A stretch of DNA of 64,000 nt. Source: a virus (lineage: Duplodnaviria > Heunggongvirae > Uroviricota > Caudoviricetes). Below, in pieces: positions 1,682 to 50,558 of the stretch. The notes beneath the pieces were generated by a model. That model saw only the letters and a list, made by a program, of their open reading frames with translations, was not told the origin of the DNA and ran no database searches. The stretch's first letter is position 1, and each line of letters begins with the position of its first letter. The position numbers and the translations under genes are program-made. Location of the stretch: the IMG/VR virus record IMGVR_UViG_3300028048_000043. One strand, 5' to 3'.

Positions 1682-2206
1682 ATGCGTAAGAAAAAGATTT
1701 TGGCGCTTGTTGGAAATAGCGGATCCGGAAAAACAACACTTGGAATAACTCTTACTTCTTTGGATGATAGATTCAACTGGGTTAGTTCATACACAACCAG
1801 ACCGAAACGCCAAAACGAAGTAAACGGAATAGATCACGTGTTTGCGGACGAGAAGGATATGCCGCCAAAAAAAGATATGGTTGCTTATACATATTTTGGA
1901 GGAAATCATTATTGGACCGAGTTTTCTCAATTTGATAAAAATAAGATAAACATTTATGTTATAGATGAAATCGGTCTAGAAGAAATGATGTTGAAATATC
2001 ACGGACTGTTCGATATAAAAACGGTTTATGTCAAGAGAGAAGATACTTCTTCAATTGATGTCGAACGAACAAAGCGAGATCAGGAAAGAAAAACATTTCC
2101 TCAAAATTTCTATGATCTTTTTATTGTTAACGATTATAGTAGCTCGCCTGAGTTTGTTAGCGATGGGTTAAAGAAACTTCGCGATCTTTGTAAAAATTGG
2201 AAATAA
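1682..2206 (+). CDS. guanylate-kinase-family (d)NMP kinase
   Basis: P-loop LVGNSGSGKTT plus TTRPKRQNEVNGIDHVF (GK signature TTRxxRxxExxGxDYxF); start placed at ATG 1682 just after clpX stop. Confidence 0.65.
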   Translation: MRKKKILALVGNSGSGKTTLGITLTSLDDRFNWVSSYTTRPKRQNEVNGIDHVFADEKDMPPKKDMVAYTYFGGNHYWTEFSQFDKNKINIYVIDEIGLEEMMLKYHGLFDIKTVYVKREDTSSIDVERTKRDQERKTFPQNFYDLFIVNDYSSSPEFVSDGLKKLRDLCKNWK

Positions 2207-2223
2207 AATAACAACAATATAAT

Positions 2224-3177
2224 ATGCCTGTAACAAATAAGTTATTTACAGAGGCTTTTAGAGCTAAAACAATTGATGGTTTGGTTTTACCCGACAGAAT
2301 ACGCAACGACGTTTCGCACGGGTTAACACAAAATATACTTCTTTATGGACCGCAGGGCGGAGGAAAGTCTACAATCGCAAGGATTCTTATTGATGGATAT
2401 GACACCCTTCTTTTGAACGGTTCGTCAGAAAACGGAATAGATGTTATTCGAGACAGAGTAGTTTCGTTTGCATCTGCCGTGTCTCTTGAGTTTGGGGCAC
2501 AAAAAACAAAAGTTATCTTTATAGATGAAGCTGATGGTCTTACAACTCAGGCATGGGACGCTTTGAGAGAGACAATCGAGCATTATGCCGATTCAGTAAG
2601 ATTCGTGTGTACCTGTAATAAGATTGATAAAATTCCTGCTCCTATTCAGTCCAGATTCAATTGCGTTCCGGTGTATCCAATAAACAAAGCTGAAGAAGAC
2701 TTTATGTTTGCTGGGTATTGTGCATATGTAGGGAAAATCCTTACGGGCATCAAGGTTTCATATGATGAAGAAACTCTTCAACAGTTTGTTAGAAACAGCT
2801 TCCCGGATATGCGATCAATCCTGAACGATATTCAGAAACTGTATATCCAAGACGCCAAGGAACTTAATAAGGAGAGTTTGGTAAAAACGTTTGATTGTTC
2901 TGATTTGTTTACGTTAATCGTAACCGGGAATAGTCCGGTTGAAAATTACAAATTCATAATGACAAACTACTCGACTTCTCCAGACGACGCTCTTCTTGCA
3001 ATATCAAAGTCGTTTGTCGATTTCTTAACATTGAATTACCCGCAGCTTTCTTCAAAGATACCATACATCATTATCACAACAGCCGAATATGCTTCTCAGA
3101 TGCAAACTGCACCAGATAAAGTTTTGGTTCTTTTGGCATGCTGCTTTAAACTTCAAGAAATAATCAGAAATGTCTAG
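2224..3177 (+). CDS. clamp-loader small subunit (RFC/gp44-like AAA+)
   Basis: LLYGPQGGGKST Walker A, FIDEADGLT Walker B, SRF (SRC-like) motif. Confidence 0.7.
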   Translation: MPVTNKLFTEAFRAKTIDGLVLPDRIRNDVSHGLTQNILLYGPQGGGKSTIARILIDGYDTLLLNGSSENGIDVIRDRVVSFASAVSLEFGAQKTKVIFIDEADGLTTQAWDALRETIEHYADSVRFVCTCNKIDKIPAPIQSRFNCVPVYPINKAEEDFMFAGYCAYVGKILTGIKVSYDEETLQQFVRNSFPDMRSILNDIQKLYIQDAKELNKESLVKTFDCSDLFTLIVTGNSPVENYKFIMTNYSTSPDDALLAISKSFVDFLTLNYPQLSSKIPYIIITTAEYASQMQTAPDKVLVLLACCFKLQEIIRNV

Positions 3178-4333
3178 AAAGTTAAATTTGGTAATAGACT
3201 TCAATAATATGGCTATGAGGTCTATGTTTACTTGCCAATATATGGGAGAAGGATCCGTAAAGAATTTTGACACTGAAGAGGAATGCAAAATTCTTGTTAG
3301 AAAGCTTGCAACTGATATGTGCCAGATTATAAAGATGTTTTCACCGGACAGGGTTATTGTTGCATGTGATACAAAGTCTCCATGGAGAACAGGATTATAC
3401 AAAGATGTTGACTATAAAGGAACTAGAAAACATGACGAAGATAAGAACTGGACAAACATTTTCTCTGCTTTGACAGATTATAAAGAAATACTTAGAAAAA
3501 ATAATTTCATTGTAACAGAGATAGAAAACGCTGAGGCTGATGATTTGGCTGCGCTTTGGGTGCATGAATTATTTGGGAACCGCAACGAGTCTGTAATCCT
3601 TGTATCGTCTGATAAGGACTGGACTCAGTTGGTTGCGTTTGGAACGTGCGACGCGTTTGTAGCCTGTTATAACCCAATATCAAATAATAAAAACCAGAGA
3701 AAGTTTTATGTTGAATCTGGATTTGAAAACTGGATAAATTCCCCGGACACTGTTGATATCTTTTTCAGTAACTACGATGAGTTAAAAAAGAAACTCAAAG
3801 AGATTATGATGTCAAACACAAAAGTTTTCAAGGAGATAATAGATCCAAACAGAGTTCTAATAGATAAGATTCTGTGTGGAGATGATGGGGATAATGTTCC
3901 GTCGTTCTACGAGTATTATAAGAGTGGTAAAAAAGCTAGGCTAACTTCACTTAAAGCTAGTCATCTCATAGAAAATCTTTCTATCCATGGTGTTGGAGGT
4001 CTTAATGAATCTGCAAAGGTCGGAACGCTGAAGACAGAAATGGAAAAAGAAATGAAGGTCGAGATTCCTGTTGATTTTGAAGACAGACTTATGCGACAGC
4101 GCAAACTTGTCGAACTTAACAGAGACTTATTTCCTGGTTCAATAGTGGATAGTTTCGATATTCATTCAAAGTATATTGATTCCGCCGGAACAGTGTCCAG
4201 CAAAATCACAATGCAGGAATTATTGAAGGATACAAAATTTATTGATAAAAATTATAATAAACCGAGAGAAAACAGTATATTTGATGATGTAAACGCATTA
4301 AATAGGTTTTCTAAGGCACCTAGTTTATTTTGA
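3170..4333 (+). CDS. 5'-3' exonuclease / flap endonuclease (phage RNase H-like)
   Basis: N-terminal LVIDFNNMAMRSMF and VSSDKDWTQLV resemble PolI 5'-nuclease/FEN acidic motifs. Confidence 0.65.
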   Translation: MSRKLNLVIDFNNMAMRSMFTCQYMGEGSVKNFDTEEECKILVRKLATDMCQIIKMFSPDRVIVACDTKSPWRTGLYKDVDYKGTRKHDEDKNWTNIFSALTDYKEILRKNNFIVTEIENAEADDLAALWVHELFGNRNESVILVSSDKDWTQLVAFGTCDAFVACYNPISNNKNQRKFYVESGFENWINSPDTVDIFFSNYDELKKKLKEIMMSNTKVFKEIIDPNRVLIDKILCGDDGDNVPSFYEYYKSGKKARLTSLKASHLIENLSIHGVGGLNESAKVGTLKTEMEKEMKVEIPVDFEDRLMRQRKLVELNRDLFPGSIVDSFDIHSKYIDSAGTVSSKITMQELLKDTKFIDKNYNKPRENSIFDDVNALNRFSKAPSLF

Positions 4334-4899
4334 TGGCAAAGAAGAAAAATGAAATATCAGTTTCAAACGAGAGTATAGATTTGATAAGTGTCCTTTCTGG
4401 AACAGATGGATATAAAATTTCCCAGAAACCAGAAAAGGAGCAAACTGTCAAATCCGTACCTTATTTTGAAATATGCGACGCCGTGTTTAAAGGGAACAGA
4501 TATTATATAAACAACATGACGGATCAGCAGGCTAAACAGAACATATTTATGGTTCTGAGAAAAGTAGCCATAGGCTATCCAGAGATAGCCAACGCTTTCA
4601 ACAGACAAAATGTTAATGCGATGGATGTCATTAAATTTTTGTCTGTCTTGCTCCCTAGCAGAGGGTTTCCAAGTTGGTATTATACTAAAACGTCTCAAAA
4701 GAAAGAGATTGCATCTAAAAATGAAATTACAAAAAACGATATTACCGTATATATACAACACTATGGAATAACAAGAAAGGACTTTGAATCGGCTATGAGG
4801 ATATTTCCAGAAGAAACCATAAAAGATGTTATAGATTTAAGAAACTTTATTAAAAATTCAAATAGCACTAGAAATGAAAAAGACACTGATAACGAATGA
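4330..4899 (+). CDS. hypothetical protein
   Basis: 189-aa ORF, start overlaps upstream stop (ATGA). Confidence 0.45.
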   Translation: MMAKKKNEISVSNESIDLISVLSGTDGYKISQKPEKEQTVKSVPYFEICDAVFKGNRYYINNMTDQQAKQNIFMVLRKVAIGYPEIANAFNRQNVNAMDVIKFLSVLLPSRGFPSWYYTKTSQKKEIASKNEITKNDITVYIQHYGITRKDFESAMRIFPEETIKDVIDLRNFIKNSNSTRNEKDTDNE

Positions 4900-5386
4900 T
4901 ATCATAAAGCTTGTTAAAAGCTCAAAGGGTGAGATTAAAGAGTACGATTTGGACCGGTACATTCAGGTTACTGTTGGTAAGATAACAATAACCAAGGGGG
5001 TAGGTTCAAAGCCAGTCTTGAATCTTGAAAGCGGGTGCGATCAAGAATATATGATGTTGTGGAATAACGACATCGGTAGGTTGTTTCTCAATGAAATAAA
5101 AAAGGATAATCCTAAAGTTTATGAGTTGATCGACGACAAGTTCAAAGCTCTGTTGGTCCTCGCGGACGAAGATGAGTATGGAGAGTTTGCATCTAAAAAT
5201 TTCTTACACGTGACATTTGGAGACAACAAGTATACGATAATCAAGGTTGTTCGTCATAATGAAAATTACAGCACCATTGAGCGCCATAATGATTATTTCG
5301 GAGATATAGACGGAGAATCTATCGTGGATGATGTTAAAACGGAAGAAGATGAGCCAGAAAAATTAAAAGAAACTGAATTATTCTAA
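4874..5386 (+). CDS. hypothetical protein
   Basis: 170-aa ORF, acidic C-terminus. Confidence 0.45.
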   Translation: MKKTLITNDIIKLVKSSKGEIKEYDLDRYIQVTVGKITITKGVGSKPVLNLESGCDQEYMMLWNNDIGRLFLNEIKKDNPKVYELIDDKFKALLVLADEDEYGEFASKNFLHVTFGDNKYTIIKVVRHNENYSTIERHNDYFGDIDGESIVDDVKTEEDEPEKLKETELF

Positions 5387-6027
5387 TGCTTCAGAAACTT
5401 GATGTAAACTTCATATTAAACATGCTGCAAGAACAGAAGGTTGCTCTATTTGAGTCACTTCTTTCTTCAACAGGAAGATCTGGTATAGACGGCGTTATAA
5501 AATTTTTAAAGGAAACCGATTTTTATAGGGCACCGGCGTCATCGAAATACCATTCAAATTATGATAGCGGTCTCCTTGACCATTCTCTGATAGTTTATTC
5601 GCTTCTTTGTGATTTGAAAGAGATGGTCGAAAAGATTGATCCAGCTGCCGTTTCTAACATTTCGGATGACAAAATAATTATATGTTCTCTTTTACATGAT
5701 GTATGTAAAACATGTTTCTATAAAAAGGCTATAAAGTGGAAGAAAAATTTAGATTCGACATGGATGCAGTATGAAGGATATGATGTAGAAGACACGTTCC
5801 CAATCGGACACGGGGAAAAATCAGTCATAATGTTGCAAAACATCGGTCTTACACTTTATCCGGACGAAATGCTTGCAATACGATATCATATGGGATTTTG
5901 GGGAGATTCGTCGAATGATGTAAAAATGTCTCAGCAAAACGCAACAAAAATGTATAGCATTGTTCCTCTTTTACAGATGGCTGATTTTACAGCATCAACG
6001 ATAATTGAGAAAGAAATAAAACACTAA
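5386..6027 (+). CDS. HD-domain phosphohydrolase
   Basis: H...HD metal-binding signature (HSLIVYSL ... LLHDVCK). Confidence 0.55.
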   Translation: MLQKLDVNFILNMLQEQKVALFESLLSSTGRSGIDGVIKFLKETDFYRAPASSKYHSNYDSGLLDHSLIVYSLLCDLKEMVEKIDPAAVSNISDDKIIICSLLHDVCKTCFYKKAIKWKKNLDSTWMQYEGYDVEDTFPIGHGEKSVIMLQNIGLTLYPDEMLAIRYHMGFWGDSSNDVKMSQQNATKMYSIVPLLQMADFTASTIIEKEIKH

Positions 6028-6067
6028 ATGCATAATAAATATCTAATAAAATAAAACGCAAAAAAAT

Positions 6068-6865
6068 ATGTTCGATCTATTTACAAAAATTGGAAGTATT
6101 TTCTCCAGCGTTCTTGAAGACGCCCTCAGTTCAGTTAATTTTGAAGACTCTATTGTCACCGATGAAAATGGGACTCATATCAAAGCATCATTTAGAGATG
6201 ACATTTTTACGGATGAAGAAAAAGATGAGCGTATAAAAGGAACTCTCAATTTCTGGAAAGGCATAATAAAAATTGGAAACGTTTCTAATCCGATTAAAAT
6301 TTCCATAAAGTTTAATGATGAAACTCCGGTTGAGTTTGAGTTCGATGAATCTTTGAACGATTTCGTTAAGATTGAAAATCCGGATACCCCAGTAAACGTT
6401 GTTGCTGAAGAAGACAGGGAATTGGATAAAAAGGACACTGTAAGCGAACCAGAATATGATATAAACAACGCTCCGAATACTGCGCACTCAGATATCAATG
6501 AAAAACAAATGACGCTTGCAGAACAGATTAAAACCGAACTTCTTTCAGACACGAAGGACCCAGATGATGAAGATTACACGGCGGAAGATATTGCCGACGA
6601 GTTTTATAAAGAAGTCAAGTCTGATAACTATAATATTTTCTCGGACGACAATGATAAAGTTCTCGGTATATCAATAGAAGCTGATCAGTTCTTTCCTGAG
6701 TTTGATTCGCTTACAAACGATGCGGATGTTATTCTTGAAGATTCTGAACTTCTTGAAGACTTCAAGGAAATCGTAAAAACAAGATACGGGTTTAGTGACG
6801 TTACTTGGGAAAGAAAGGATTATGGTTCGGGATATGTAACTATTCAGTTTAACTTTATATTTTAA
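6068..6865 (+). CDS. hypothetical acidic protein
   Basis: 265-aa ORF, D/E-rich. Confidence 0.45.
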   Translation: MFDLFTKIGSIFSSVLEDALSSVNFEDSIVTDENGTHIKASFRDDIFTDEEKDERIKGTLNFWKGIIKIGNVSNPIKISIKFNDETPVEFEFDESLNDFVKIENPDTPVNVVAEEDRELDKKDTVSEPEYDINNAPNTAHSDINEKQMTLAEQIKTELLSDTKDPDDEDYTAEDIADEFYKEVKSDNYNIFSDDNDKVLGISIEADQFFPEFDSLTNDADVILEDSELLEDFKEIVKTRYGFSDVTWERKDYGSGYVTIQFNFIF

Positions 6866-6873
6866 TTTAAATT

Positions 6874-8775
6874 ATGAACAAAATTATCGGTATTGACCTC
6901 GGCAGCACAATGAGTGCTGTCGCGGTTGTTGAACAGGGGAAGCCACAAATTATTGTGAACAATGACGGAGACAGAACTACACCGTCCGTCATCGGGTACT
7001 CTAATGATGGAGAGGTAAAGGTTGGAAATTCAGCAAAGCGTTCAGCCGTTGTCAATCCAAAAACTACTATTGAGGTTATCAAAAGATTCATTGGTAATTC
7101 CTGGAAGAGATCCTCAAAATATGCAAAGGATTTTTCATATGATATTGTTGAGGGTCCAAATGACACAATTCGTGTAAAGATAAACGGAAAGGAATACACG
7201 CCTCAGGAAATTAGTGCAGAGGTTCTTCGCAAACTTAAAAAGTCAGCGGAAGACTATCTTGGTTCAGAAGTCAAGGAAGCCGTTATAACTGTACCGGCAT
7301 ATTTTGACGACCAGCAGAGAACAGCAACAGTTGAAGCTGCAAAAATAGCCGGACTTGAATGTAAGAGAATCATAAATGAGCCAACGGCGGCCGCTCTTGC
7401 ATTTGGTCTTGACAAACTTGACAAGGACATGAAGATTCTTGTTCTTGATTTGGGCGGAAGTACAGCTGATGTTTCAATCCTTGAATTGGGAAACGGTGTA
7501 TTTGAAGTGGTCAGTACAAACGGAGATATGATTCTTGGTGGTCGAGATCTCGATCAGTTAATTACGGATTGGATTGTCGACAAAATAAAAGAACAGTGCG
7601 GCGTCGATGTAAAGAAAGACCATATGGCATATCAGAGGGTTGTTGAGGCAGCAGAGAAGGCAAAAATAGAACTTTCTAATGTTACTTCAACAGACATCAA
7701 TCTTCCATATTTGACTGCTGTCGACGGAGTTCCTCAGCACTTTATGTCAAGTCTCACTCGCGCTCAATTCGAAAATCTTGCAGAGGGTTTCATTAAAAAG
7801 GTTGAAAATCTTTGTAAAGGTGCTTTGGAATCGGCAAAAATGAACATCAACGATATAGACGAAGTTCTTCTCGTTGGAGGAACAACAAGGGTTCCTAAAG
7901 TTCAGCAATTCGTTAGAGATTATTTTAAGAAGGAACCTAACAAATCCGTTAATCCGGATGAGGCTGTTGCTCTCGGAGCTGCAATTCAAGGTGCTATCCT
8001 TGCTGGAGATCTCGGAGACGATATTGTTCTTCTTGATGTCACTCCTCTAAACTTAAATATAACAACTCTCGGTGATGTTGCTACAACAATGATTGAAGCA
8101 AACACTACTATTCCTGTTTCGAAGGAACATATTTTCACAACAGCTGAAGATAACCAACCGGCAATAACCGTTGTCGTTACTCAGGGAAACAGAAAGATTG
8201 CAAGTGAGAATAAAAAGCTCGGAGAGTTTAATCTTGATGGAATAGCTCCTGCTAGAAGAGGTGTTCCGCAGATCAAAGTAAAATTTGATCTTGATACAAA
8301 TGGAATACTTAAAGTTACTGCAACCGACACGGCAACAGGAAAAGAACAGTTTATAAGAATAGAGGGGTCATCTAATCTTGATGATTCTGAAATCGACAGA
8401 ATGAGGAAAGATGCTGAGTTGCATGAAGCAGAAGATAAAGCAAGAGTTGAGAAGCAGAATAAACTTAACGACGCAGAATCTCTCATATTTGCCACAGAGC
8501 GTCAGTTATCTGACCAAGGAGACAAGATCTCCGACAATCTGAAGAAAGATATAGCAGAAAAATTAAATGCCTTAAAAGCTGTTTATAACGTTAAACCTGA
8601 GGATAGGGACATCGATGCTATTGAAAAGGCAACAAACGTTTTAAGAGAAGCTGTATACAAGGCTAGTGAGGAACTCTATAAATCTTCTTCAACTGATTCG
8701 TCTTCCGGACAGAATCCATTCTCGAATTTTGATTTCGCAAATGGTGGATTTCCTGGTGGAAATCCGACGAAATGA
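6874..8775 (+). CDS. dnaK: Hsp70 chaperone DnaK
   Basis: [40 protein letters not shown] signatures; 633 aa with GGFPGG C-terminus. Confidence 0.9.
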
Positions 8776-15137: not shown

Positions 15138-15962
15138 ATGAAATCATTAAAAGAAATCACAACAAATCTGAAGTATCGAGTAAGAAACTTTCTTCTCTAT
15201 AAAATCGCGCTTCCTATCATTAGATGGTGCGGTAAAGACTCTAACTATGTTAAACACTACGATAAAGAAATAAGCATTATCAGAAAAGGAGAACCTGGAT
15301 GCGGAATCGACGGTCTTATGGATTCCCAGGTAAAGGACCTTCTCTATCTTCTTTCTACGCAATGGGATAGCGGATTTAGTATACATTTCAAACGCCGCTA
15401 TTTCGATGCAGCCGCAAAGTTCGGTCTGCTTTCTCCTCTTACTTTTAAAGACGATGAGTTCGGTGAGTCTTATATGAGTGGACGAAATGATTTGACCGCA
15501 CAGAATAAACGACTATCGTCCGTGTTCAAATCAAACGGAAAGGTATATGATATCGATGCATTCTCGATTCGTACGTCTTTGCAGCACAACATTGACACAA
15601 AAGAAACCGTAGAGGGAAACGGTCTTACTTGGTCAGGTGGAACCTGGGTTCATGATAAAGAATCTGGAAAATGGTTCTTTATGTCAAGAGGATATATTGA
15701 CACGAAGAAAAACAAAACGTTTATGGGTGAGAATCACGTAGTTGTTCCAACAATCGAGATTATAGACAACAACTGTGGTACAGGAACGTTTATTATGAGT
15801 ATAACAGATAAAGATCTTATTCCAAACGAGTTCTACAAGGATTATACGATTGATTCAGTTTTTGATACAGAACGCCGGAGTGACGAACGGCTTAAAGAGG
15901 ATCTTGAATTCCTTGATTCACACAACGATGAGTTCGTCGAAGTGCTTAAAAAGTTAAGATAA
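15138..15962 (+). CDS. hypothetical protein
   Basis: 274-aa ORF. Confidence 0.45.
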   Translation: MKSLKEITTNLKYRVRNFLLYKIALPIIRWCGKDSNYVKHYDKEISIIRKGEPGCGIDGLMDSQVKDLLYLLSTQWDSGFSIHFKRRYFDAAAKFGLLSPLTFKDDEFGESYMSGRNDLTAQNKRLSSVFKSNGKVYDIDAFSIRTSLQHNIDTKETVEGNGLTWSGGTWVHDKESGKWFFMSRGYIDTKKNKTFMGENHVVVPTIEIIDNNCGTGTFIMSITDKDLIPNEFYKDYTIDSVFDTERRSDERLKEDLEFLDSHNDEFVEVLKKLR

Positions 15963-15966
15963 TAAT

Positions 15967-16164
15967 ATGGCTTGGTATTTCATAGTTCTGTTGATATTTG
16001 GATACTTTGTCCTTTGGATTGTAACATCATTGCTTTCAATTTATTGCAGGGAATCCAAGACAATTGAGGATGCAGTGGTGTTTGGATTTGCCTGGCCGGT
16101 ATTTTTTGTAATCTTTTTACCGATGTCTGTTATAACATATTTTGTTCGAAAATACAACATTTGA
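15967..16164 (+). CDS. small membrane protein
   Basis: 65 aa, two hydrophobic helices. Confidence 0.4.
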   Translation: MAWYFIVLLIFGYFVLWIVTSLLSIYCRESKTIEDAVVFGFAWPVFFVIFLPMSVITYFVRKYNI

Positions 16165-16170
16165 TATATT

Positions 16171-16623
16171 ATGGAAAATTTAGAAAATAAAATACAAGAA
16201 AATCTTGTAAAGGCTATGAAGGCTAAAAACGAAATCGAAGTATCAGCCCTTCGTTCAGTTAAAGCCGCTATTCAGAACGAGAAGGTTAATGGCGCATATC
16301 ACGAACTCACATACAACGAAATCATAGGCGTTATTCAAAAGCTCAGCAAGCAGCGCCAAGAAGCAGCTGAGATTTATACGTCTGCCGGGCGTACTGAACT
16401 TGCGGAAAAAGAGCTTTCAGAAAAGAAAATACTTGACGAATATCTTCCAAAGATGCTTCCGGAATACGAACTAAGAAAAGTAATCAGCGAGACCATATCT
16501 GGACTTAATATAACAGAGATGAAAGGAATGGGTCTTGTCATCAAAACACTAAAAGAAAGGTATCCAAATCAGTTCGATGGATCTGTTGCATCTCGAATTG
16601 TTCTCGAGATTCTATCAAAATAA
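16171..16623 (+). CDS. GatB/YqeY-domain protein
   Basis: N-terminal NLVKAMKAKNEIEVSALRSVKAAIQN matches YqeY family pattern. Confidence 0.6.
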   Translation: MENLENKIQENLVKAMKAKNEIEVSALRSVKAAIQNEKVNGAYHELTYNEIIGVIQKLSKQRQEAAEIYTSAGRTELAEKELSEKKILDEYLPKMLPEYELRKVISETISGLNITEMKGMGLVIKTLKERYPNQFDGSVASRIVLEILSK

Positions 16624-16643
16624 TACATTCGTTCGAATATAAA

Positions 16644-17309
16644 ATGGAAGAATCTGTTAAAAATACATCCGATGTGATGCAATTTAGGGAGAATTATTTC
16701 CTTGATTTGAATTCTGTTCTTATTAAGTTCAGAAAAGAACACGGGATGAAAGACGCAAAGGAGCTTATACCTTATCTTAGACGAATGCTCCATTGGTACG
16801 AAAACATGGGTCATATTGTTCTTGATGATAGCATTGAGAAACCATCAACGTCAAACGATTCTTTAAAGAAGAGTCCTGAAGGAAAACTGATAACTTGTGG
16901 TGTTATCATCAAGGATGTCAATGACAAAATTCTTGCTTGTGTTCCAACAGGCTCGTCTTATTATTTTGATATACCGAAAGGGTGCGCCAATAAAGATGAA
17001 GACGATTTGGATGCAGCTATAAGGGAATGCCGCGAAGAAACCGGTCTTCGTTTGGATTATTTTAGAAATGAAATCGAAGATCTAGGCGTTTACAAATATC
17101 TCAAACATAAAGATATTCATTTATTCAGGTTAAAACTTCCGTTTGTTGCCTTAGATACTTTTGTACATACTCTTAAATGTACATCTTATTTTATGGATAA
17201 AGATGGAATTGAAAAACCTGAAGTTTCTGGTTATAGGGTTGTTGATCCAAAGACATGTGAGAACTTTAACACATCTATGACAGAACTAATTAGAAAATTC
17301 GCAATTTAA
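16644..17309 (+). CDS. Nudix hydrolase
   Basis: Nudix box GCANKDEDDLDAAIRECREETGL (REx2EExGU). Confidence 0.65.
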   Translation: MEESVKNTSDVMQFRENYFLDLNSVLIKFRKEHGMKDAKELIPYLRRMLHWYENMGHIVLDDSIEKPSTSNDSLKKSPEGKLITCGVIIKDVNDKILACVPTGSSYYFDIPKGCANKDEDDLDAAIRECREETGLRLDYFRNEIEDLGVYKYLKHKDIHLFRLKLPFVALDTFVHTLKCTSYFMDKDGIEKPEVSGYRVVDPKTCENFNTSMTELIRKFAI

Positions 17310-17314
17310 ATATT

Positions 17315-17785
17315 ATGAAAGGAAATGAGAATCATGGTGCAGGGGAGTTGTGTCTCTCTGATCAAATCAAAGAAAAAACTGTAAAATCGTTAAGAGATCT
17401 TCATAGATATGTAACAGACGATGGAGTTTCAATCAAAAACGGTATTCTTGTAAGAAATATTTCAACAGGAGTGCAATATACAGTTGTATATAAACCCGAA
17501 GACAATGTTTTTATCGGTGTACCTTTAAGTGGAGATTTTGTTCTCATATCAAATTTTGGAGAGGGGTTTGTATATGATGAACTTAAAACTGAAGTGGAAG
17601 TTGAAGAAAGGTATGTTGATGGGCTTACAAATGAAAATGGGTTAGGAATGACACTGCTGACAGCTGAACCATTGAAACCAAATACAAGATACAATCTTCT
17701 TGTTAGAGAGGCGTTAAACGAAAAGCGTCCGATGATAGAAAAAGTCTATGAGAACATAAAGAAAGAAAACAAAAAAACAAAATAA
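17315..17785 (+). CDS. hypothetical protein
   Basis: 156-aa ORF. Confidence 0.45.
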   Translation: MKGNENHGAGELCLSDQIKEKTVKSLRDLHRYVTDDGVSIKNGILVRNISTGVQYTVVYKPEDNVFIGVPLSGDFVLISNFGEGFVYDELKTEVEVEERYVDGLTNENGLGMTLLTAEPLKPNTRYNLLVREALNEKRPMIEKVYENIKKENKKTK

Positions 17786-17789
17786 GTAA

Positions 17790-18887
17790 ATGAACTATCA
17801 AAATGTTGGTGTCGTCAGCTTCGGAGTCAAGCTGCCGATTCTAAAGGAGGGTGATGATTTGGTAAGCGCAGTTGTTGAATCTGTGATCTCATCATGTAAT
17901 TCAATTCATGATAAGGATGTGATCGGCATTACAGAATCTATTGTTGCCCGCGTCGAGGGAAACTATGTTACTGTTGATGAGATTGCTGACTATGTAAAGA
18001 AACTTTACGGAGAACATGCAAAGATAGCTGTGTGTGCTCCAATATATTCAAGAAACAGATTTTCAATGATTCTTAAAGGAATAGCCCGTGGGGTTGATGA
18101 AATCGTTATGTTTGCCCCAGAATATGACGAGGTCGGAAATCCTTTCGGCGTGAATCCGTTTACTGGATGCGACATTGAAAAATATTATGGAGATATCTGT
18201 GAAGCTGAGAATTGTAAATTTTCTGTTGCAGACGGGCTTACCGAATTTTATAGCAAATTCGGAGTCGATGAGGACATGAAAGTTCTTAATTGTGGTCTTC
18301 ATATTGATAAAGAGAAGTATAATCTTTTTAAATCAATGGCTGATTCCTCATTCTATTATACTCTTGAGGATATTTGTAAAGAAAAATGTGAGTATGGACT
18401 CCTCGGCTCAAACAAGGCTACAGAAGAAAAACTCAAGCTGTTTCCAAGTAAGGCATTCGCTCAAAAGGTTTGTGAAGACGTTAAGCGAGAAATTTCAGTT
18501 AAAACTGGAGCAAACGTAATAGTTTGCGTGTACGGTGACGGTTGTTTCCATGATCCGGTTGCGGGAATATGGGAGTTTGCCGACCCTGTAACAATGCCAG
18601 CGTTTACTGACGAAGACATCATAATGTCTACTCCAAATGAGATCAAAATTAAATATTTTGCTGATGAAAAATTTAAGGATCTCAGCGGAGAAGAGCTGTC
18701 TGATGCAATCAGAGCAGAAATAAAAACAAAGAAAGAAAATCTTGTTGGAGAGATGACATCTGAAGGGACAACACCGCGTCTTAGAAGGGATCTTCTTGCT
18801 TCGCTCATGGACTTAACATCTGGATCAGGAGATAGAGGAACGCCTGTTGTTGTCGTTAAAGGTTATTTTGTAGATTACTCTTCTTAA
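17790..18887 (+). CDS. hypothetical protein, possible CofE-like (F420-0:gamma-glutamyl ligase fold)
   Basis: N-terminal VKLPILKEGDDLVSAV ... IGITESIVARVEGN resembles CofE family opening motif; unverified. Confidence 0.4.
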   Translation: MNYQNVGVVSFGVKLPILKEGDDLVSAVVESVISSCNSIHDKDVIGITESIVARVEGNYVTVDEIADYVKKLYGEHAKIAVCAPIYSRNRFSMILKGIARGVDEIVMFAPEYDEVGNPFGVNPFTGCDIEKYYGDICEAENCKFSVADGLTEFYSKFGVDEDMKVLNCGLHIDKEKYNLFKSMADSSFYYTLEDICKEKCEYGLLGSNKATEEKLKLFPSKAFAQKVCEDVKREISVKTGANVIVCVYGDGCFHDPVAGIWEFADPVTMPAFTDEDIIMSTPNEIKIKYFADEKFKDLSGEELSDAIRAEIKTKKENLVGEMTSEGTTPRLRRDLLASLMDLTSGSGDRGTPVVVVKGYFVDYSS

Positions 18888-31397: not shown

Positions 31398-32588
31398 TTA
31401 CTTGGAATACTTGTCTGACAAGTCAAGAAGGAATTTGAGTCCCATTGCATCCATCGCTGTGGCACCCGAAGAACCGTTTCCTCCACCGCCCCAGATAATC
31501 TTAGGAAGCTCAACATTGGAGAATGCCTCTGCAACACCAACCTTGGTCTTGTATTCCCATTCTGCCCTTTCCTGAGGAGTCAGACCTGCTGCCACCTTTG
31601 CGCGGTTGGCTGCTGCCTCTGCTTCGCCCTCGGCAATAATCCTCTTCTTATCAAACTCTGCCTTCTCTGCTGCAAGACGGGCAACTTCGCGTTCCTGTTC
31701 AGCCTTTGTGACCTCTGTTGCCTTCACCTTCTCCTGTTCCCACTTGGCCTTTGCTGCTGCTGCCTTACCTTCAGCCTCTGCCTTGATAGCATCCTGCTGC
31801 GCAGCCAGTGCTTCTGCCTTCTTGGTCTGGATGGACATATTAGCCTGCTGCTGGGTCTGGATCTGCTGGTTCACCTTGTCATCATAAGTGATTTCAGTGA
31901 TGGATACCTGGTCAATAATAACACCATAATTGGTGAATGGTGAACTTTCTGAACGGGCATATCCATTGGGAGAGTGTTCATCTGCAACAAGAGATGCGAC
32001 CTTTACCTTCTTACTTTCTCCAGTGAAAGAGTCAATGACATCATCTTCACGGACAGTAGTCTTATATACACCATTAGTGAGCTGGTCGGTGATATAGGCA
32101 ACCATATCATTCTTCTTCTCTGCATAAGATTCAAATGCTGACATCAGAGGACCGGATGCATAGATAACCTTCACAACATTCTGTGCAACCAGGTCATTCA
32201 TCAACCTATCCATTCCATTGTATGCGGTCTGGATGAGTTTCAGGTGAGCAACATCAGTAGGGAGTACGACACGAAGGGATCCATAGATGTAACCAACAGA
32301 TGCATCATTGAAAACAACCTTGATGGGAGTACCATGGGAATTGCCTTCCACATCCTTACCACCAAACCAGAACTGCTGGGTCTTGTAGTACTCGGTCTTC
32401 TTACCGAACCACTGCCACTGGAAACCAGGTTCTGTCCAGTATGCCATTTTTCCAGTGAAAGGATACTGGTTGACCACAATGTTCTCATTCTTCACATCCT
32501 CACCGATGCTTCCCATCAGACAGAGAACGATTACTGCGAATACGCCGACGATTGCGGCGACTACTTTGTTTTTTGTTACGTTAATCAT
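31398..32588 (-). CDS. SPFH/band-7 (flotillin/YqiK-like) membrane protein
   Basis: N-terminal TM helix (VVAAIVGVFAVIVLCLMGSIG), central SPFH-like region, long Ala/Glu/Lys coiled-coil (AEAEGKAAAAKAKWEQEK...EAEAAANRAK); GC about 50% vs about 35% background. Confidence 0.75.
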   Translation of the reverse strand: MINVTKNKVVAAIVGVFAVIVLCLMGSIGEDVKNENIVVNQYPFTGKMAYWTEPGFQWQWFGKKTEYYKTQQFWFGGKDVEGNSHGTPIKVVFNDASVGYIYGSLRVVLPTDVAHLKLIQTAYNGMDRLMNDLVAQNVVKVIYASGPLMSAFESYAEKKNDMVAYITDQLTNGVYKTTVREDDVIDSFTGESKKVKVASLVADEHSPNGYARSESSPFTNYGVIIDQVSITEITYDDKVNQQIQTQQQANMSIQTKKAEALAAQQDAIKAEAEGKAAAAKAKWEQEKVKATEVTKAEQEREVARLAAEKAEFDKKRIIAEGEAEAAANRAKVAAGLTPQERAEWEYKTKVGVAEAFSNVELPKIIWGGGGNGSSGATAMDAMGLKFLLDLSDKYSK

Positions 32589-35900: not shown

Positions 35901-36734
35901 TCAAAATTTGAACGCTTCCTTCATAAACCTTTCTCGATTTTCATCAAGAGTTAAATCAAATGCAGGAATAACTGTAAATTTCGATCGAGTGAAAGTTATA
36001 GGTGCATTAGACTGTGGAATAAGTCTACTCTCTGTTGTTTCTTTCTTATATACGAATCGACCGAACCTATACTGATCGGCGAACGCACACCAATCTACAC
36101 CAGATTTTGCTTTACATAGTTCAACTTGTTCATCTGTATTTCTACTCATAAGATCCTTAGGAGAAAGATATGTCTGAGCAGTCTGCTGCTTAGAGTTCCT
36201 GATGCAGTCGATTTGGCGGTACAGGAACCAAGCATACACGTCGTTTTTATTTGGAACGACCCAGACTTTACAGTCGAATTGGGCTAGTTTCATTTTATTG
36301 ATTTCGTCATACACTTCCGCAAACGTAACATCTACATCTCCGCTATCAACAAACTTGTTTGAAAGTTTATTCAGTATGAATTGTCTGTTGAATTCGCTGG
36401 TTGCTAACGAAGCTAAAATAGACTGAAGTTTGCACAATCTTCCACCAAATGGAGTGTCGGTTTCCTGTGTATCATAATCTGTTATGAGAAGACTTATCTC
36501 GTCGCTCTGCGTATATGCAAATTTAACTCCCTGAACGTTATTGCACAGGAATTTTGCCGTTTTGTTCATCATATCGATGAAATCATCATCGAACGGTTTT
36601 TTGAAATGATTCTTCACGAGCGTACTGAAGTTCTTTCCGTCAAGCATAACAAGAATGTTACTGTTCGGGAGAATCCTGTAATCAGTAAGATCTCTATAAT
36701 AATTACACTTTTCTTTGAGGTTTTTGAAATTCAT
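35901..36734 (-). CDS. Thg1-like protein (tRNA-His guanylyltransferase family 3'-5' nucleotidyltransferase)
   Basis: ILVMLDGKNFSTLVKNHFKKPFDDDF matches Thg1 VVVRLDGRNFHRF..KP.D; FAYTQSDEISLL matches metal-binding IAYGQSDEYSFV; KLQSILASLATSEF matches KFMTHVASQFASSY. Confidence 0.65.
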   Translation of the reverse strand: MNFKNLKEKCNYYRDLTDYRILPNSNILVMLDGKNFSTLVKNHFKKPFDDDFIDMMNKTAKFLCNNVQGVKFAYTQSDEISLLITDYDTQETDTPFGGRLCKLQSILASLATSEFNRQFILNKLSNKFVDSGDVDVTFAEVYDEINKMKLAQFDCKVWVVPNKNDVYAWFLYRQIDCIRNSKQQTAQTYLSPKDLMSRNTDEQVELCKAKSGVDWCAFADQYRFGRFVYKKETTESRLIPQSNAPITFTRSKFTVIPAFDLTLDENRERFMKEAFKF

Positions 36735-37859: not shown

Positions 37860-38708
37860 TTAGTCTGTTCTTACAAGAAGTTTTCTATCTTTATTGTTTT
37901 TAAACATCATAGTTTGATAACATTTTGCACAATTAGGTATAAATGCGTTATAGAACTTCATGTTAAATTCCTTGAATCTCTTGTCGAATCCGCCATCAAG
38001 ATAATCAGATATGTTTGCATATTGAAGCACTCCCATATCACATTTGTATATGTCACCATCCTCATCAATAAGGAATGTATATAAAGACTCTGGTTTCTGA
38101 CAGTAACACCCAAAGAAACTATAAATCCCGTTAGATGAAAACGCGCTTCTTCCAATCGGTACTATTCCACTTTCACTTAAATAGTTTATATCAGGAATGT
38201 TATATTTTGCACCCATCTTTTCAAGAAGTTCTCCAGCTTTATCCACATTTTTATTTGTGTGCCATTTATCCCTTGAAATCGATATGTTTATTTTATCTCC
38301 ACAGTTTATGACGAGTCGCTGAAGTTTTGCTTGAACAGAAATATTGTTAGCCCAGTCTCCATTGCTGACAATTCTTGCGTGTTTACAGGAATCTATAAGA
38401 ATTGTAAATATTTCATACCAGTCAGGGTTACAGAAAAATTCTCCTCCCATAAGGTTAATACTTACGACGTCGTTGTTTTTGATGAATTGAGCAATCTCCT
38501 TTGCCCTGTCTATGCTCATCATTATTTTGCTTTCTGGAGACGAATTGAAGCAGCAATGGGAACATTTTTGTGTACATTTATTCGTTATCCTTATTGTCCA
38601 ATGAAGAAACCGCATGCACTCGTTTGCTAATTTACAAGTGTTGCAGTTACAGTCGTGTTTTCCTTTACAAGTTTCCTCTACACAAATGTTGCAAGGAGGT
38701 TTTCTCAT
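37860..38708 (-). CDS. radical SAM enzyme with N-terminal Cys-rich extension and C-terminal twitch/SPASM-like motif (paralog 1)
   Basis: CTQKCSHC (Cx3Cx2C), NLMGGEFF (GGE motif), C-x14-G-x4-C then CAKC at C-terminus; N-terminal CNICVEETCKGKHDCNCNTCKLANEC. Confidence 0.7.
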   Translation of the reverse strand: MRKPPCNICVEETCKGKHDCNCNTCKLANECMRFLHWTIRITNKCTQKCSHCCFNSSPESKIMMSIDRAKEIAQFIKNNDVVSINLMGGEFFCNPDWYEIFTILIDSCKHARIVSNGDWANNISVQAKLQRLVINCGDKINISISRDKWHTNKNVDKAGELLEKMGAKYNIPDINYLSESGIVPIGRSAFSSNGIYSFFGCYCQKPESLYTFLIDEDGDIYKCDMGVLQYANISDYLDGGFDKRFKEFNMKFYNAFIPNCAKCYQTMMFKNNKDRKLLVRTD

Positions 38709-45294: not shown

Positions 45295-46239
45295 TTATTC
45301 CTCTTCTTTTTCTCGAACCTGAACTATTACATCTGTATCGTTTTTGAATTTATCAAAAAGTTTTTCCTCGATTCCTGGAGTTTTTACATATGATGTGAAT
45401 GCACTTGTATATACCGTTCCTTCAACGGTTATTCCTTTTTCAGCTTGCTCCTGCTTTCCGGCGATTTTTCCAAGATTGTAATAATGCTTTGCGATTGCGG
45501 AATGTGTTCGGTCATCAAGAATCTCATACATATTATTAAAAGGAATATGCGATCCATATCTTTCTATTTCACGCTCAAGACTGTCCGATTCATTATATGT
45601 TTTAAGATCTGTTTTGAAATGATAACCAGATTCATCAACAACTGCGTCTCCATGAACTTCCGGATAGAAAGTTGTTTTTGGTTCTCTGTATTTTTTATCA
45701 AAGTTCCATTTCTTTAGATAATCAAATTTTTGTTCTTTTGTTTCTGATTTTTCTAATCCTTCACCAGCCGTTCTAAGATAATCTTCAAGTCGTTCTGCTG
45801 CCTGCTGAGGAGTATGACCATCCCATTTATTCGCGACAACTTTTTCAGGAATATTGAAAAGATTCCAATACTTCATTTCATAATGGTTGGAAATCTGTCC
45901 CGTTGGAAGTTCAGCCATAACGATAAACCATCCGCCTCCGAAACATTCTTCGCCGTCGTTGTGTCTCTTACTTTTATGTACGTCATATTCAACTTCCCAT
46001 GATCCGTCAGCCCAACTGTCATAATTTGCAAGGGAATTAAAGAATGCGGCATTATACAGCATCCTATAATTGTAAAGCTCATTAAACGTATGATATCCGT
46101 CCGATATTTCTCCTTTATCGGTCGGTTCGTTTTCCATTTTTTCTGCAAAAGAAATCAGTTTATCAAGACTAGGAGTAGCTATTGGTTGCCACTTCTTCAA
46201 TTCTTCAACCTTCTCTTTCAGTTTTTCAAGATCTATCAT
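45295..46239 (-). CDS. hypothetical protein
   Basis: 314-aa ORF. Confidence 0.45.
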   Translation of the reverse strand: MIDLEKLKEKVEELKKWQPIATPSLDKLISFAEKMENEPTDKGEISDGYHTFNELYNYRMLYNAAFFNSLANYDSWADGSWEVEYDVHKSKRHNDGEECFGGGWFIVMAELPTGQISNHYEMKYWNLFNIPEKVVANKWDGHTPQQAAERLEDYLRTAGEGLEKSETKEQKFDYLKKWNFDKKYREPKTTFYPEVHGDAVVDESGYHFKTDLKTYNESDSLEREIERYGSHIPFNNMYEILDDRTHSAIAKHYYNLGKIAGKQEQAEKGITVEGTVYTSAFTSYVKTPGIEEKLFDKFKNDTDVIVQVREKEEE

Positions 46240-47582: not shown

Positions 47583-47733
47583 TTATACCACACAAATAAA
47601 CCACTAATAAAATTGTAAATATTCCAATATGAACAATTATATCCTGTTGTATACTATATCTCGGAAGGATAAAATATATTGCAAGTCCATAGATGATAAT
47701 ACCTATAAAAAACAATATGTCTCTTCTAATCAT
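47524..47733 (-). CDS. small membrane protein immediately downstream of rSAM paralog 2
   Basis: 69 aa, 2 TM helices, overlaps rSAM stop. Confidence 0.4.
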   Translation of the reverse strand: MIRRDILFFIGIIIYGLAIYFILPRYSIQQDIIVHIGIFTILLVVYLCGIIVLELISKKISDWNCKKLF

Positions 47734-48565
47734 AATCTACTATAAATTCAGGTTTCTGTGATGATATAAAGTTATAACAGGATTGACAAGATGAGATGAA
47801 TACAGAATAGAATTTACTGTTTGTTTCTTTGAACTTCTGTCTGAATCCTCCTTCAAGATATTCATCAACATGTGCATAACACAGGACACCGAATGAACAC
47901 TTGAAAATATTTCCTTTTTCATCAATAAGGAAAGAATACTTATTTTTAGGATTCTGACAGTAACATCCCATCATATCATAAAGTCCACTGATGTACTTAC
48001 CATTTGCCCTACCAACAGGGACAATAGACTGATCGGTTGTCTGATCTTCTGTTGCCACTTTGACAATCGCCCCTATATCTTCAAGGAATGCCTTTGCAGC
48101 ATCCACATTCTTGTTTGTATGCCACTTGTCCTTTGATATACAGAAGTAAATCTGCTTATTGAACAGTGATACCAATGTCATCAGCTGGGTCTTTACTTTC
48201 ATATTGTTCACCCAGTCACCATTTGTCACCAGTCTGGCATATTTTACAGATGAGATGAGGGCACTATATATCTCAAACCAGTCGGGATTGCAGAAGAACT
48301 CTCCACCCATAAGGTTGATACTCTCTATGTCATTACTTTTCAAGAACTTTGCAATTTCTTTTGCTTTCTCCACAGTCATCATAATGTTTGACTTTGGAGA
48401 AGACATAAAGCAACAGTGACCGCACTCCTGGGTACATCTGTTGGTGATTCTGATAGTTGCATGAAGTTTTCTGTAACACTTATCTTTCAGTTGACAAGCA
48501 TCACAATGACAATTATGAGCGCCTTTGCAGGTTTCTTCTAAACATATATCACAAGGACTTGACAT
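47726..48565 (-). CDS. radical SAM enzyme with N-terminal Cys-rich extension and C-terminal twitch/SPASM-like motif (paralog 2)
   Basis: CTQECGHC, NLMGGEFF, GCYCQ...C-x-G-x4-C, about 50% identity to 37860-38708 across full length. Confidence 0.7.
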   Translation of the reverse strand: MSSPCDICLEETCKGAHNCHCDACQLKDKCYRKLHATIRITNRCTQECGHCCFMSSPKSNIMMTVEKAKEIAKFLKSNDIESINLMGGEFFCNPDWFEIYSALISSVKYARLVTNGDWVNNMKVKTQLMTLVSLFNKQIYFCISKDKWHTNKNVDAAKAFLEDIGAIVKVATEDQTTDQSIVPVGRANGKYISGLYDMMGCYCQNPKNKYSFLIDEKGNIFKCSFGVLCYAHVDEYLEGGFRQKFKETNSKFYSVFISSCQSCYNFISSQKPEFIVDYD

Positions 48566-49880: not shown

Positions 49881-50558
49881 CTATTCAAGTTTTTTACATT
49901 CTTCTTCAGTATACATAGAATGGAGTTTTTCAATCCACCACTTGGTCTTGATTTTAACAGAAGGTCTCCTCTGTCCCTTGAGTAAAGTTGATCTCTTGAA
50001 CACAACACCTTCCTTTACTTTTGAGTTCCAGCAATCGGGTTGAGTCCAGTCATTTCCCTGGATCTTTGAAATGATGTCTGCGTCAAGTACACCTGAATAA
50101 ATCAAATCAGGCATCTCAATCCCAGAATTCCTGAAACACATTTCATAGTTCTTTGGTTCAATATAACCTTTCTTCTTCAGGAATACATCAATGAGTGCAA
50201 GATGCATTTCATCTCCATCCTGGTGTTTACCGGCGAAAGAATTCCAACCATACCACTCAGATACAAATGTCACTTCATCAACACCAGTAAAGACATCTCC
50301 CTTTCCGGAATAGTCTTTTACAATCTTTGCAATTATTTCAGGATAATTGGAATTTTTGAACCACTTGACCACCTGTCCAAACTGTTCAGAATTCTCATCA
50401 ACAGTGACTGTCCTGGATCCAAATGGTCCCCAGGTTTTCTTTCTGCAATTATAGGATGCAACAAAATTCTGGCCATCAAGTTTATTATACCCGACAACCA
50501 TTTCACCTTTCAAAGAACCATCATCCTGGATTCTTGGTATGGAATCATAATGTTTCAT
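49881..50558 (-). CDS. minimal Rnl2-like RNA/DNA ligase nucleotidyltransferase domain
   Basis: motif I GYNKLDGQNF (KxDGxN, cf. T4 Rnl2 KIHGTNF), motif IV EGVVFK, motif V KIKTKWW. Confidence 0.55.
   Translation of the reverse strand: MKHYDSIPRIQDDGSLKGEMVVGYNKLDGQNFVASYNCRKKTWGPFGSRTVTVDENSEQFGQVVKWFKNSNYPEIIAKIVKDYSGKGDVFTGVDEVTFVSEWYGWNSFAGKHQDGDEMHLALIDVFLKKKGYIEPKNYEMCFRNSGIEMPDLIYSGVLDADIISKIQGNDWTQPDCWNSKVKEGVVFKRSTLLKGQRRPSVKIKTKWWIEKLHSMYTEEECKKLE

Follow-up and report, generated by a model that had tools for sequence, protein, structure and literature searches.

A bacterial-type Thg1-like protein encoded by a huge gut phage and its probable role in tRNA 5'-end repair

Results

The stretch of DNA analysed here - 64,000 nucleotides of the caudovirus record IMGVR_UViG_3300028048_000043, referred to below as the window - carries at 35901-36734 on its minus strand one complete gene for a Thg1-like protein (TLP). 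According to an open reading frame (ORF) scan, a single uninterrupted ORF of 277 codons fills this interval, running from an ATG start to a TGA stop without any internal stop in the standard code, and the start methionine is common to 49 homologues, which supports the choice of start codon. A sequence-only reading of the window had placed a Thg1-like gene at these positions without naming a strand, and this is borne out by the intact ORF, by profile matches and by a full-length fold. The N-terminal catalytic palm domain (residues 17-161) corresponds by translation of the Pfam Thg1 match to 36252-36686 on the minus strand, and the C-terminal half (residues 162-277; 35904-36251, same strand), delineated by phmmer, structure model and fold alignment, contains a helix with R173, D176 and N180 and a beta-hairpin at residues 226-257.

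Profile searches matched Pfam PF04446 (Thg1) at E=5.1e-28, with 98 bits against a cut-off of 29.2 and residues 17-161 covering profile positions 9-130 of 130, and PHROG 4717, labelled "tRNA-His guanylyltransferase", at E=2.7e-52 over residues 11-255. When solved structures were searched by sequence with phmmer, the best match was BtTLP, the Thg1-like protein of Bacillus thuringiensis (4kgk, E=4.2e-24), followed by an archaeal TLP and by human and Candida Thg1 at around 1e-8. An AlphaFold2 model built from 50 homologues reached a predicted local distance difference test score (pLDDT) of 89.5 and a predicted template-modelling score (pTM) of 0.87, and with it Foldseek hits 1-32 in the PDB were all Thg1 or TLP chains. 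Here, too, BtTLP came first (4kgm_A, E=2.2e-20, target TM 0.83, with 4kgk also at the top), human and Candida Thg1 and archaeal TLP came after it, and the fold alignments extended over some 268-272 columns.

The sequence-only reading had based its call on three peptide blocks, all of which are present in the ORF: ILVMLDGKNFS (residues 27-37), FAYTQSDEISLL (72-83) and KLQSILASLATSEF (102-115). Its human comparators stand for the first two, which phmmer pairs in human Thg1 (7cv1) with VVVRLDGRNFH and IAYGQSDEYSFV; the human counterpart offered for the third, KFMTHVASQFASSY, is unconfirmed by any alignment, and only that of BtTLP, KIASVSASMATAKF, is confirmed for this block, BtTLP (4kgk) being the protein with which phmmer pairs all three. 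Of the two profiles by which it had proposed to check the family, PF04446 matches as given above and PF14413 (Thg1C, the C-terminal domain profile) finds nothing in the protein at E<=1. Probably, the latter profile is too narrow for this clade of TLPs, and the C-terminal half is still homologous to BtTLP, both by phmmer (second domain, residues 148-218) and by fold.

Taken as a family assignment, we are therefore close to certain that the ORF encodes a functional Thg1/TLP enzyme. A palm-domain nucleotide cyclase or signal synthase, or else a decaying or inactive gene copy, could be envisaged given that the Thg1 palm is related to GGDEF, Cas10 and cyclase domains (PMC2904730) and that Foldseek also returned weak hits to adenylyl cyclases and GGDEF proteins. 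These latter hits, however, lie at E>=5e-3 against E=1e-12 to 1e-20 for full-length TLP/Thg1 structure matches, conservation extends to the C-terminal half that faces the tRNA, the reading frame is intact and the catalytic residues are invariant across more than 100 clusters, so to our minds such a scenario is very improbable.

Residues with assigned roles were mapped onto the phage protein via phmmer alignments. The metal-binding carboxylates of human Thg1 (hThg1) are D29, D76 and E77, its activation step involves K44 and S75, and R27, K95/96 and R130/133 serve nucleotidyl transfer and are listed as conserved family-wide and catalytically important (PMC3701042); roles have further been described for helix residues R147, D150 - the fidelity gatekeeper - and N154 (PMC12632743). 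In the phage protein, the first metal carboxylate is D32 (codon 36639-36641, minus strand; BtTLP D30), invariant in 50 of 50 clade members, and codons 36498-36506 on the same strand specify S77-D78-E79 (hThg1 S75/D76/E77), with S77 being the activation residue and D78 and E79 the second and third carboxylates. The catalytic carboxylates highlighted by the sequence-only reading thus hold up in a proper alignment. All three are invariant in the 50 clade members and are kept in 81-82 of 82 phage TLPs, taken from loci in IMG/VR and metagenomes, and S77 is invariant both in these 82 loci and in the alignment of 50. There is also a KPxD loop (K46-P47-F48-D49) in which K46 corresponds to hThg1 K44 and D49 to D47, position 46 being Lys or Arg in most members and Leu in 7/82 phage loci. 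K102 (nucleotidyl-transfer K95), D154 (conserved D128) and the three helix residues R173 (R147), D176 (gatekeeper D150) and N180 (N154) are all present, and the whole set of D32, D49, D78, E79, K46, S77, K102, D154, R173, D176 and N180 is conserved or invariant across the clade.

What is absent is the motif of the eukaryotic enzymes, DCHINNLYN, which is replaced by DCIRNSKQQ, with IRNSKQQ (residues 178-184) at the position of HINNLYN. Since HINNLYN is missing and the nearest relatives by sequence and fold are TLPs, the protein is not a dedicated eukaryotic-type Thg1; judged by sequence, and despite the database label of tRNA-His guanylyltransferase, we class it as a TLP of the bacterial/archaeal type. 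In line with the bacterial type, BtTLP ranks first in both searches, no Thg1-specific motif is found and gatekeeper D176 is kept. Eukaryotic Thg1 (human 3OTB and 7CV1, Candida 3WBZ, yeast 5XOX) shares the fold, the three carboxylates and the two-step chemistry; it uses the HINNLYN region to read the GUG anticodon and places G-1 opposite A73 without a template, whereas the phage TLP is without the motif.

The nearest known system is thus BtTLP (4KGK/4KGM), a repair-type and template-dependent enzyme that is about 25% identical to the phage TLP over the fold alignment. Its D30/D75/E76 match D32/D78/E79, K43/S74 match K46/S77, K99 matches K102 and R147 matches R173, and neither of the two proteins has HINNLYN. 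They differ, on the other hand, by R28 to M30, N96 to R99, R131 to K156 and I156-S157-M158 to K182-Q183-Q184, as well as by an extra insert of roughly 25 residues in the phage protein (118-147; variable in the clade), by a C-terminal helix at 264-275 and by being phage-encoded. With its active site intact, the phage protein is predicted to be a catalytically competent, template-dependent 3'-to-5' RNA polymerase of the bacterial TLP type. Models for how it might act are provided by DdiTLP2 (G-1 of mitochondrial tRNA-His) and DdiTLP3 (mitochondrial tRNA 5' editing) from Dictyostelium and by archaeal MaTLP (5AXK-5AXN), which perform templated 3'-5' addition on acceptor stems, although the tasks known for these enzymes are organellar or archaeal.

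Among the basic residues for nucleotidyl transfer, only part is kept: K102 is present, but R27 is replaced by M30 and R130 by K156. M30 (codon 36645-36647, minus strand) sits at the conserved nucleotidyl-transfer arginine (R27 in yeast ScThg1 and hThg1, R28 in BtTLP), and the loss of this arginine co-varies with the gain of R99 (codon 36438-36440, minus strand; BtTLP N96), one helical turn ahead of K102 (BtTLP K99). We compared the 82 phage TLP loci as a clade of 33 - the query and sequences 39-68% identical to it - and 49 others. Position 30 is Met, His or Ala in the clade and Arg in the others; position 99 is Arg in 33/33 clade members and in 0/49 of the others, which mostly have Asn; position 156 is Lys in the former and Arg in the latter. 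While the split at these three positions is complete, residues 182-184 are mostly K-Q-Q in the clade and I/V-S-M/S elsewhere. In a second set, made up of the 150 best representatives (50%-identity clusters) from a library of 1.84 billion proteins, Arg99 is found in 74/75 representatives without Arg30 as opposed to 9/72 with it, the tiny p-values for co-variation between 30 and 99 ignoring phylogeny. Apparent intermediates exist, with R/R/R at positions 30/99/156 in 9 clusters and M/R/R in 3.

BtTLP K99 contacts the gamma-phosphate of the incoming nucleoside triphosphate (NTP) from the adjacent subunit (PMC3701042). Together with the co-variation, this contact suggests that the NTP-holding arginine has probably moved from position 30 to 99 instead of being lost. 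Met30/Arg99/Lys156 is the signature of a sub-clade rather than a defect of a single gene, and it provides no ground for excluding the protein from the family since it is profile, fold and metal site that define membership, which is kept despite the loss of Arg27. Of the 150 closest clusters at 50% identity, about half belong to the clade with Met30/Arg99/Lys156/KQQ, and in the literature searched we found no description of the Met30/Arg99 signature of this gut-megaphage clade.

A remodelled site for the incoming NTP brings up the question of whether the phage TLP has altered chemistry or a substrate other than tRNA, for example by capping 5'-monophosphate RNA (App-RNA or Gpp-RNA) for a ligase or by extending other small RNAs. 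To our knowledge, no physiological substrate has been established for DdiTLP4. Across the whole clade Arg27 is exchanged (Met in the query), R130 for Lys and the I-S-M triplet for K-Q-Q, ligase-type genes recur near phage TLPs (see below), R27, K96 and R133 have been assigned to the nucleotidyl-transfer step (PMC3701042) and, in a passage of PMC5041481, the physiological substrates of bacterial TLPs are described as not established. Against this, the loss of Arg30 is coupled to the new Arg99 beside K102, which looks like compensation and not like loss of the second step, and both gatekeeper D176 and the R173/N180 pair facing the incoming NTP are conserved. We thus regard a non-tRNA substrate or altered chemistry as rather improbable.

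The exact protein is encoded on a metagenomic contig of 313,587 bp (ENA ERZ27252073 k141_717600). Since the window has PHROG matches for clamp loader, 5'-3' exonuclease and endolysin, as well as a DnaK homologue, and since genes for the large terminase and a gp25-like baseplate protein lie just left of it on the same contig, the origin is phage; the source is a huge phage of the animal gut. Megablast found no near-identical phage genome in the reference collection. By TLP protein, the nearest complete genomes are those of the 540-550-kb Lak megaphages of Prevotella, huge gut phages whose orthologues are 49% identical over 97-99% of the length. Metagenomic loci L016, L018 and L035, which we take as Lak-like because their identity and match length are the same, carry M30/R99/K156/KQQ, the signature having been read on these loci. 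Lak genomes have 26% GC and recode TAG, whereas the window has 36% GC and no recoding: reading TAG or TGA as sense brings little gain in ORF coverage, and the larger gain with TAA as sense is at chance level for AT-rich sequence.

More widely, homologues occur in at least 155 reference phage genomes, at least 588 IMG/VR contigs have a TLP match and the family comprises some 4,700 clusters at 50% identity. At least 120 clusters with 53% identity or above are found on contigs of up to 0.78 Mb. The clade of the query, with its invariant catalytic residues, is large, conserved and phage-specific. Members with the Met30/Arg99/Lys156/KQQ signature are confined to phage-like contigs from animal guts, bar a few contigs from metagenome-assembled genomes (MAGs) that are classified inconsistently. 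A cellular origin of the clade was considered and rejected: among 185,579 species genomes, clade-specific motifs turned up in 6 contigs, all from MAGs of goat, yak or faecal samples whose taxonomic assignments contradict one another, and these are probably mis-binned phage contigs. The named phage genes of PHROG 4717 - Bacillus phage Bc431v3 gp143, Caulobacter phage CcrSC gp347, Xanthomonas phage XacN1 ORF126 and Bacillus phage G gp378 - belong to the same family, come from large or jumbo phages, lie near genes for nicotinamide adenine dinucleotide (NAD) salvage or RNA ligase and encode proteins 29-37% identical to the query. Those TLPs of uncultured phages that were aligned in this same range of identity keep Arg30, Asn99 and Arg156.

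In the window, the TLP gene is part of a long array of short leftward genes, mostly without a family match, and is separated by 9 nt from its downstream and by 44 nt from its upstream neighbour. A promoter and terminator scan around it gave counts at or below those of shuffled sequence and is uninformative. An RNA-ligase-like gene for 225 amino acids (49881-50558, minus strand) belongs to the same leftward block and strand and lies 13 kb upstream of the TLP. Its product matches Pfam RNA_ligase PF09414 (E=2.4e-8; 34.7 bits against a cut-off of 27) and shows ligase motifs I, III, IV and V (KLDG, SEWYG, LIDVF and EGVVFK), with no PHROG match and no significant sequence match in the PDB. Its homologue in locus L005, with 81% identity, is encoded 2.2 kb upstream of the TLP there, and a Lak-A1 gene encodes one with 60% identity. 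L005 is a 473-kb contig whose TLP is 67% identical to ours; on it, the TLP gene shares a 7-kb stretch with the ligase-like gene and with genes for an RNA ligase and a Tpt1 RNA 2'-phosphotransferase. By such association, the RNA-ligase-like gene is a probable partner of the TLP in RNA repair. The neighbourhood differs in Lak-A1, where an S1-domain gene lies upstream of the TLP and the ligase homologue is 44 kb off.

Neighbour families were counted within 10 kb of the TLP gene at the 82 phage loci, related loci being counted separately. NAMPT-like phosphoribosyltransferases occur at 23/82 loci, nucleoside deoxyribosyltransferase-like proteins at 17/82, PRPP synthetase at 16/82, metallophosphoesterases at 13/82, YqeY at 11/82, the HAD domain of 'Swiss Army Knife' RNA-repair proteins (HAD_SAK_2) at 10/82 and the ligase-like family at 7/82. 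NAD-salvage genes are thus found near 16 to 23 of the 82 TLPs, and these associations fit a scheme of NAD-dependent RNA repair put forward for jumbo phages (PMC7824862). In CcrSC, NAD-salvage genes are 3-5 kb from the TLP gene, and in XacN1 an RNA ligase is 4 kb away. Of the families counted, the window has YqeY (16171-16623) and the ligase only. A radical SAM protein was entertained as another partner, as its gene abuts the TLP gene in L003 and 7 other loci, but was set aside, as the two radical SAM genes of the window show no homology to it detectable at E<0.01.

These two radical SAM genes (37860-38708 and 47726-48565, both minus strand) are paralogues in their own right, 56% identical and 9 kb apart in the leftward block of the TLP, and each combines a CxxxCxxC cluster with an N-terminal extension rich in Cys. 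An SPFH/Band_7-like protein (31398-32588, minus strand; weak precomputed Pfam match, PHROG 11908) and a WDGH-domain protein (45295-46239, minus strand) are encoded among leftward genes that otherwise resist annotation. Rightward, 15138-18887 on the plus strand holds a series of genes that are likely to serve counter-defence or nucleotide metabolism: a Tad3-like protein (15138-15962; Pfam 'Type I Thoeris inhibitor Tad3', E=3e-18), YqeY (plus strand, E=6e-38), a NUDIX protein (16644-17309) and an F420-0:gamma-glutamyl-ligase-like protein (17790-18887; E=4e-36). The DnaK homologue is a full-length Hsp70 (6874-8775, plus strand; Pfam HSP70, 733 bits), near which lie an AAA+/ClpB-like ATPase (565-1680), the clamp loader (2224-3177), the 5'-3' exonuclease (3170-4333) and an HD phosphohydrolase (5386-6027). 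Just past the right end of the window, on the same contig (L109, about 1900-8200), there is a stretch of some 6 kb beside a sigma-70 gene that is almost gene-free; its GC content is 41% against 36%, it has no tRNA, Rfam match or notable tandem repeat, and stop reassignment does not explain it.

As for tRNA genes among the loci of the 82 relatives, 16 have a tRNA within 10 kb, 7 have large arrays and in 3, two of them clearly related, the TLP gene is inside a tRNA array. The notion that TLP genes adjoin tRNA arrays was dismissed as strong evidence, since by our estimate 20-kb windows in huge phages would yield a proportion near 7/82 by chance. Acceptor-stem mismatches are found in 12/134 tRNAs near TLP genes, five of these mismatches falling on positions 1-3 in 4 tRNAs. 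Unlike in the editing DdiTLP systems, 5' mismatches are therefore not systematic, and mitochondrial-style 5' editing of phage tRNAs was rejected as a general role.

A rival reading concerns tRNA-His, the idea being that the TLP is dedicated to tRNA-His maturation and adds or restores G-1 opposite C73 on phage or host tRNA-His for charging by histidyl-tRNA synthetase. In vitro, bacterial TLPs are efficient at adding G-1 opposite C73 (cited in PMC3701042) and DdiTLP2 performs G-1 addition in vivo (PMC12632743). Consistent with such a role, C73 is present in 5/6 tRNA-His genes of TLP-encoding phages, and irregular acceptor stems are more frequent among them than among other tRNAs (4/6 against 13/160; Fisher p=0.001, ignoring relatedness); moreover, the irregular stem of Lak tRNA-His is kept across Lak-A, Lak-B and Lak-C, and Lak carries an orthologous TLP. 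However, five of the six tRNA-His genes also encode G at -1, so that G-1 need not be added post-transcriptionally, and RNase P could, as in bacteria, spare it with no need for Thg1. In addition, the TLP is without HINNLYN, an element found in enzymes reading the His anticodon, and there is no tRNA-His in 84 kb of the source contig. Finally, 13 Caulobacter and 7 Brevundimonas phage records carry TLPs, and the hosts do not use G-1; Wang et al. reportedly described in 2007 that tRNA-His of these hosts is naturally without it. TLPs in phages of G-1-less hosts therefore speak for a role wider than G-1 addition, and we consider exclusive service to tRNA-His unlikely.

Several tRNAs at these loci deserve description. 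The sole tRNA-His(GTG) of Lak (Lak-A1 MK250016.1 108271-108344, equal to L098 8671-8744; L107 in Lak-B2; L108 in Lak-C1) forms in the canonical register only G-1:C73 plus three more pairs and in a slipped register 7 pairs with a bulged T. It is kept in Lak-A, Lak-B and Lak-C, irregular stem included, while its flanks diverge, and Lak-B2 shows a compensatory change in the anticodon stem; all Lak phages compared for tRNA-His carry the orthologous TLP. Other tRNA-His genes near TLPs (L011 5257-5330, L052 4076-4161 and L075 6750-6824) have U-U or C-U mismatches at acceptor positions 4-6, and the one in L075 has T both at -1 and at 73. Roughly 250 nt upstream of the TLP gene, three related viral contigs carry a tRNA of 94-95 nt (L056 8257-8350, L057 677-771 and L059 662-756) that scores 44 bits with the Rfam tRNA model, has a 39-nt insertion in the anticodon region and is given no anticodon by ARAGORN; it may harbour an intron. 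Suppressor-type tRNAs with anticodons CTA, TCA or TTA are found in L064, L076, L086 and Lak-A1, in agreement with the recoding reported for Lak.

Discussion

Our findings identify in a huge gut phage a further, correctly recognized member of a type of phage gene that is already known. Caudovirus homologues of Thg1 were pointed out in 2010 (PMC2904730), that of Bc431v3 was singled out as unusual in 2013 with the suggestion that it might modify phage or host tRNAs (PMC3601020), and Iyer et al. (2021) placed phage Thg1 in a jumbo-phage toolbox for tRNA 5'-end repair (PMC7824862). The tRNA-repair idea put forward by the sequence-only reading is therefore not new but published, and the genes have a PHROG family of their own. 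The functions that this reading offered, namely mending of tRNA 5' ends, protection against tRNA-targeting nucleases or maturation of phage-encoded tRNAs, are plausible and are those usually proposed for the family.

As to function, we favour general repair or quality control of tRNA 5' ends, on phage or host tRNAs during infection and as part of an RNA-repair set with the ligase-like gene; on the analysis presented above, this is the probable role, albeit one we hold with some reserve. All TLPs studied biochemically except DdiTLP2 repair 5'-truncated tRNAs by Watson-Crick-templated addition (PMC12632743). By analogy, the phage would make a tetrameric, BtTLP-like enzyme that activates the 5'-monophosphate end of a tRNA with ATP or GTP. 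Next, an NTP held by Watson-Crick pairing to the opposing 3' strand of the acceptor stem would attack the activated end through its 3'-OH, after which pyrophosphate would be removed. In this way, missing 5' nucleotides could be restored, including G-1 opposite C73 on a tRNA-His that has lost it.

A number of observations weigh against general 5'-end repair. The ligase gene is 13 kb from the TLP gene, a distance at which the link is merely suggestive, and tblastn found no genes in the window for Tpt1, NAMPT, PRPP synthetase, HAD_SAK_2 or nucleoside deoxyribosyltransferase-like proteins, one marginal NAMPT match (E=0.001) not being counted. Nor did the window with about 10 kb of flank on each side, 84 kb of contig in total, contain any tRNA (ARAGORN) or Rfam RNA, and the closeness of TLP genes to tRNA arrays elsewhere is, as outlined above, about chance level. 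With Met in place of Arg27 and Lys in place of R130, the step-2 chemistry could differ from that of characterised TLPs. We are not aware of an anti-phage nuclease that trims tRNA 5' ends and found none in the literature searched, which also yielded no biochemical study of a phage TLP.

The signature of the clade invites a bolder scenario, namely that its members are functionally distinct 3'-5' polymerases whose task is to rebuild or complete oddly paired stems of phage tRNA-His, such as those of Lak, or to reverse a hypothetical host defence that trims tRNA 5' ends. If the NTP-holding arginine now sits on the helix of the neighbouring subunit, the accepted nucleotide or substrate may have changed. 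We see this as a long shot, and we retain general tRNA 5'-end repair as our preferred interpretation.

Taken by itself, the gene adds one more huge-phage genome to a long list of those with a Thg1-like gene, and it supports the published view that large phages carry tools for tRNA repair. Beyond that, the Met30 clade contradicts the working assumption that R27 is conserved family-wide, and the exchange of Arg27 for Met together with the gain of Arg99 is a natural experiment from which one could learn how enzymes of this kind grip the incoming NTP during reverse polymerisation. Phages could also offer a setting in which selection is clear enough to show which damage is mended by TLPs in vivo. 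That phages encode an enzyme for the repair of 5' ends is a hint that the acceptor end of tRNA may be a target of some host defences.

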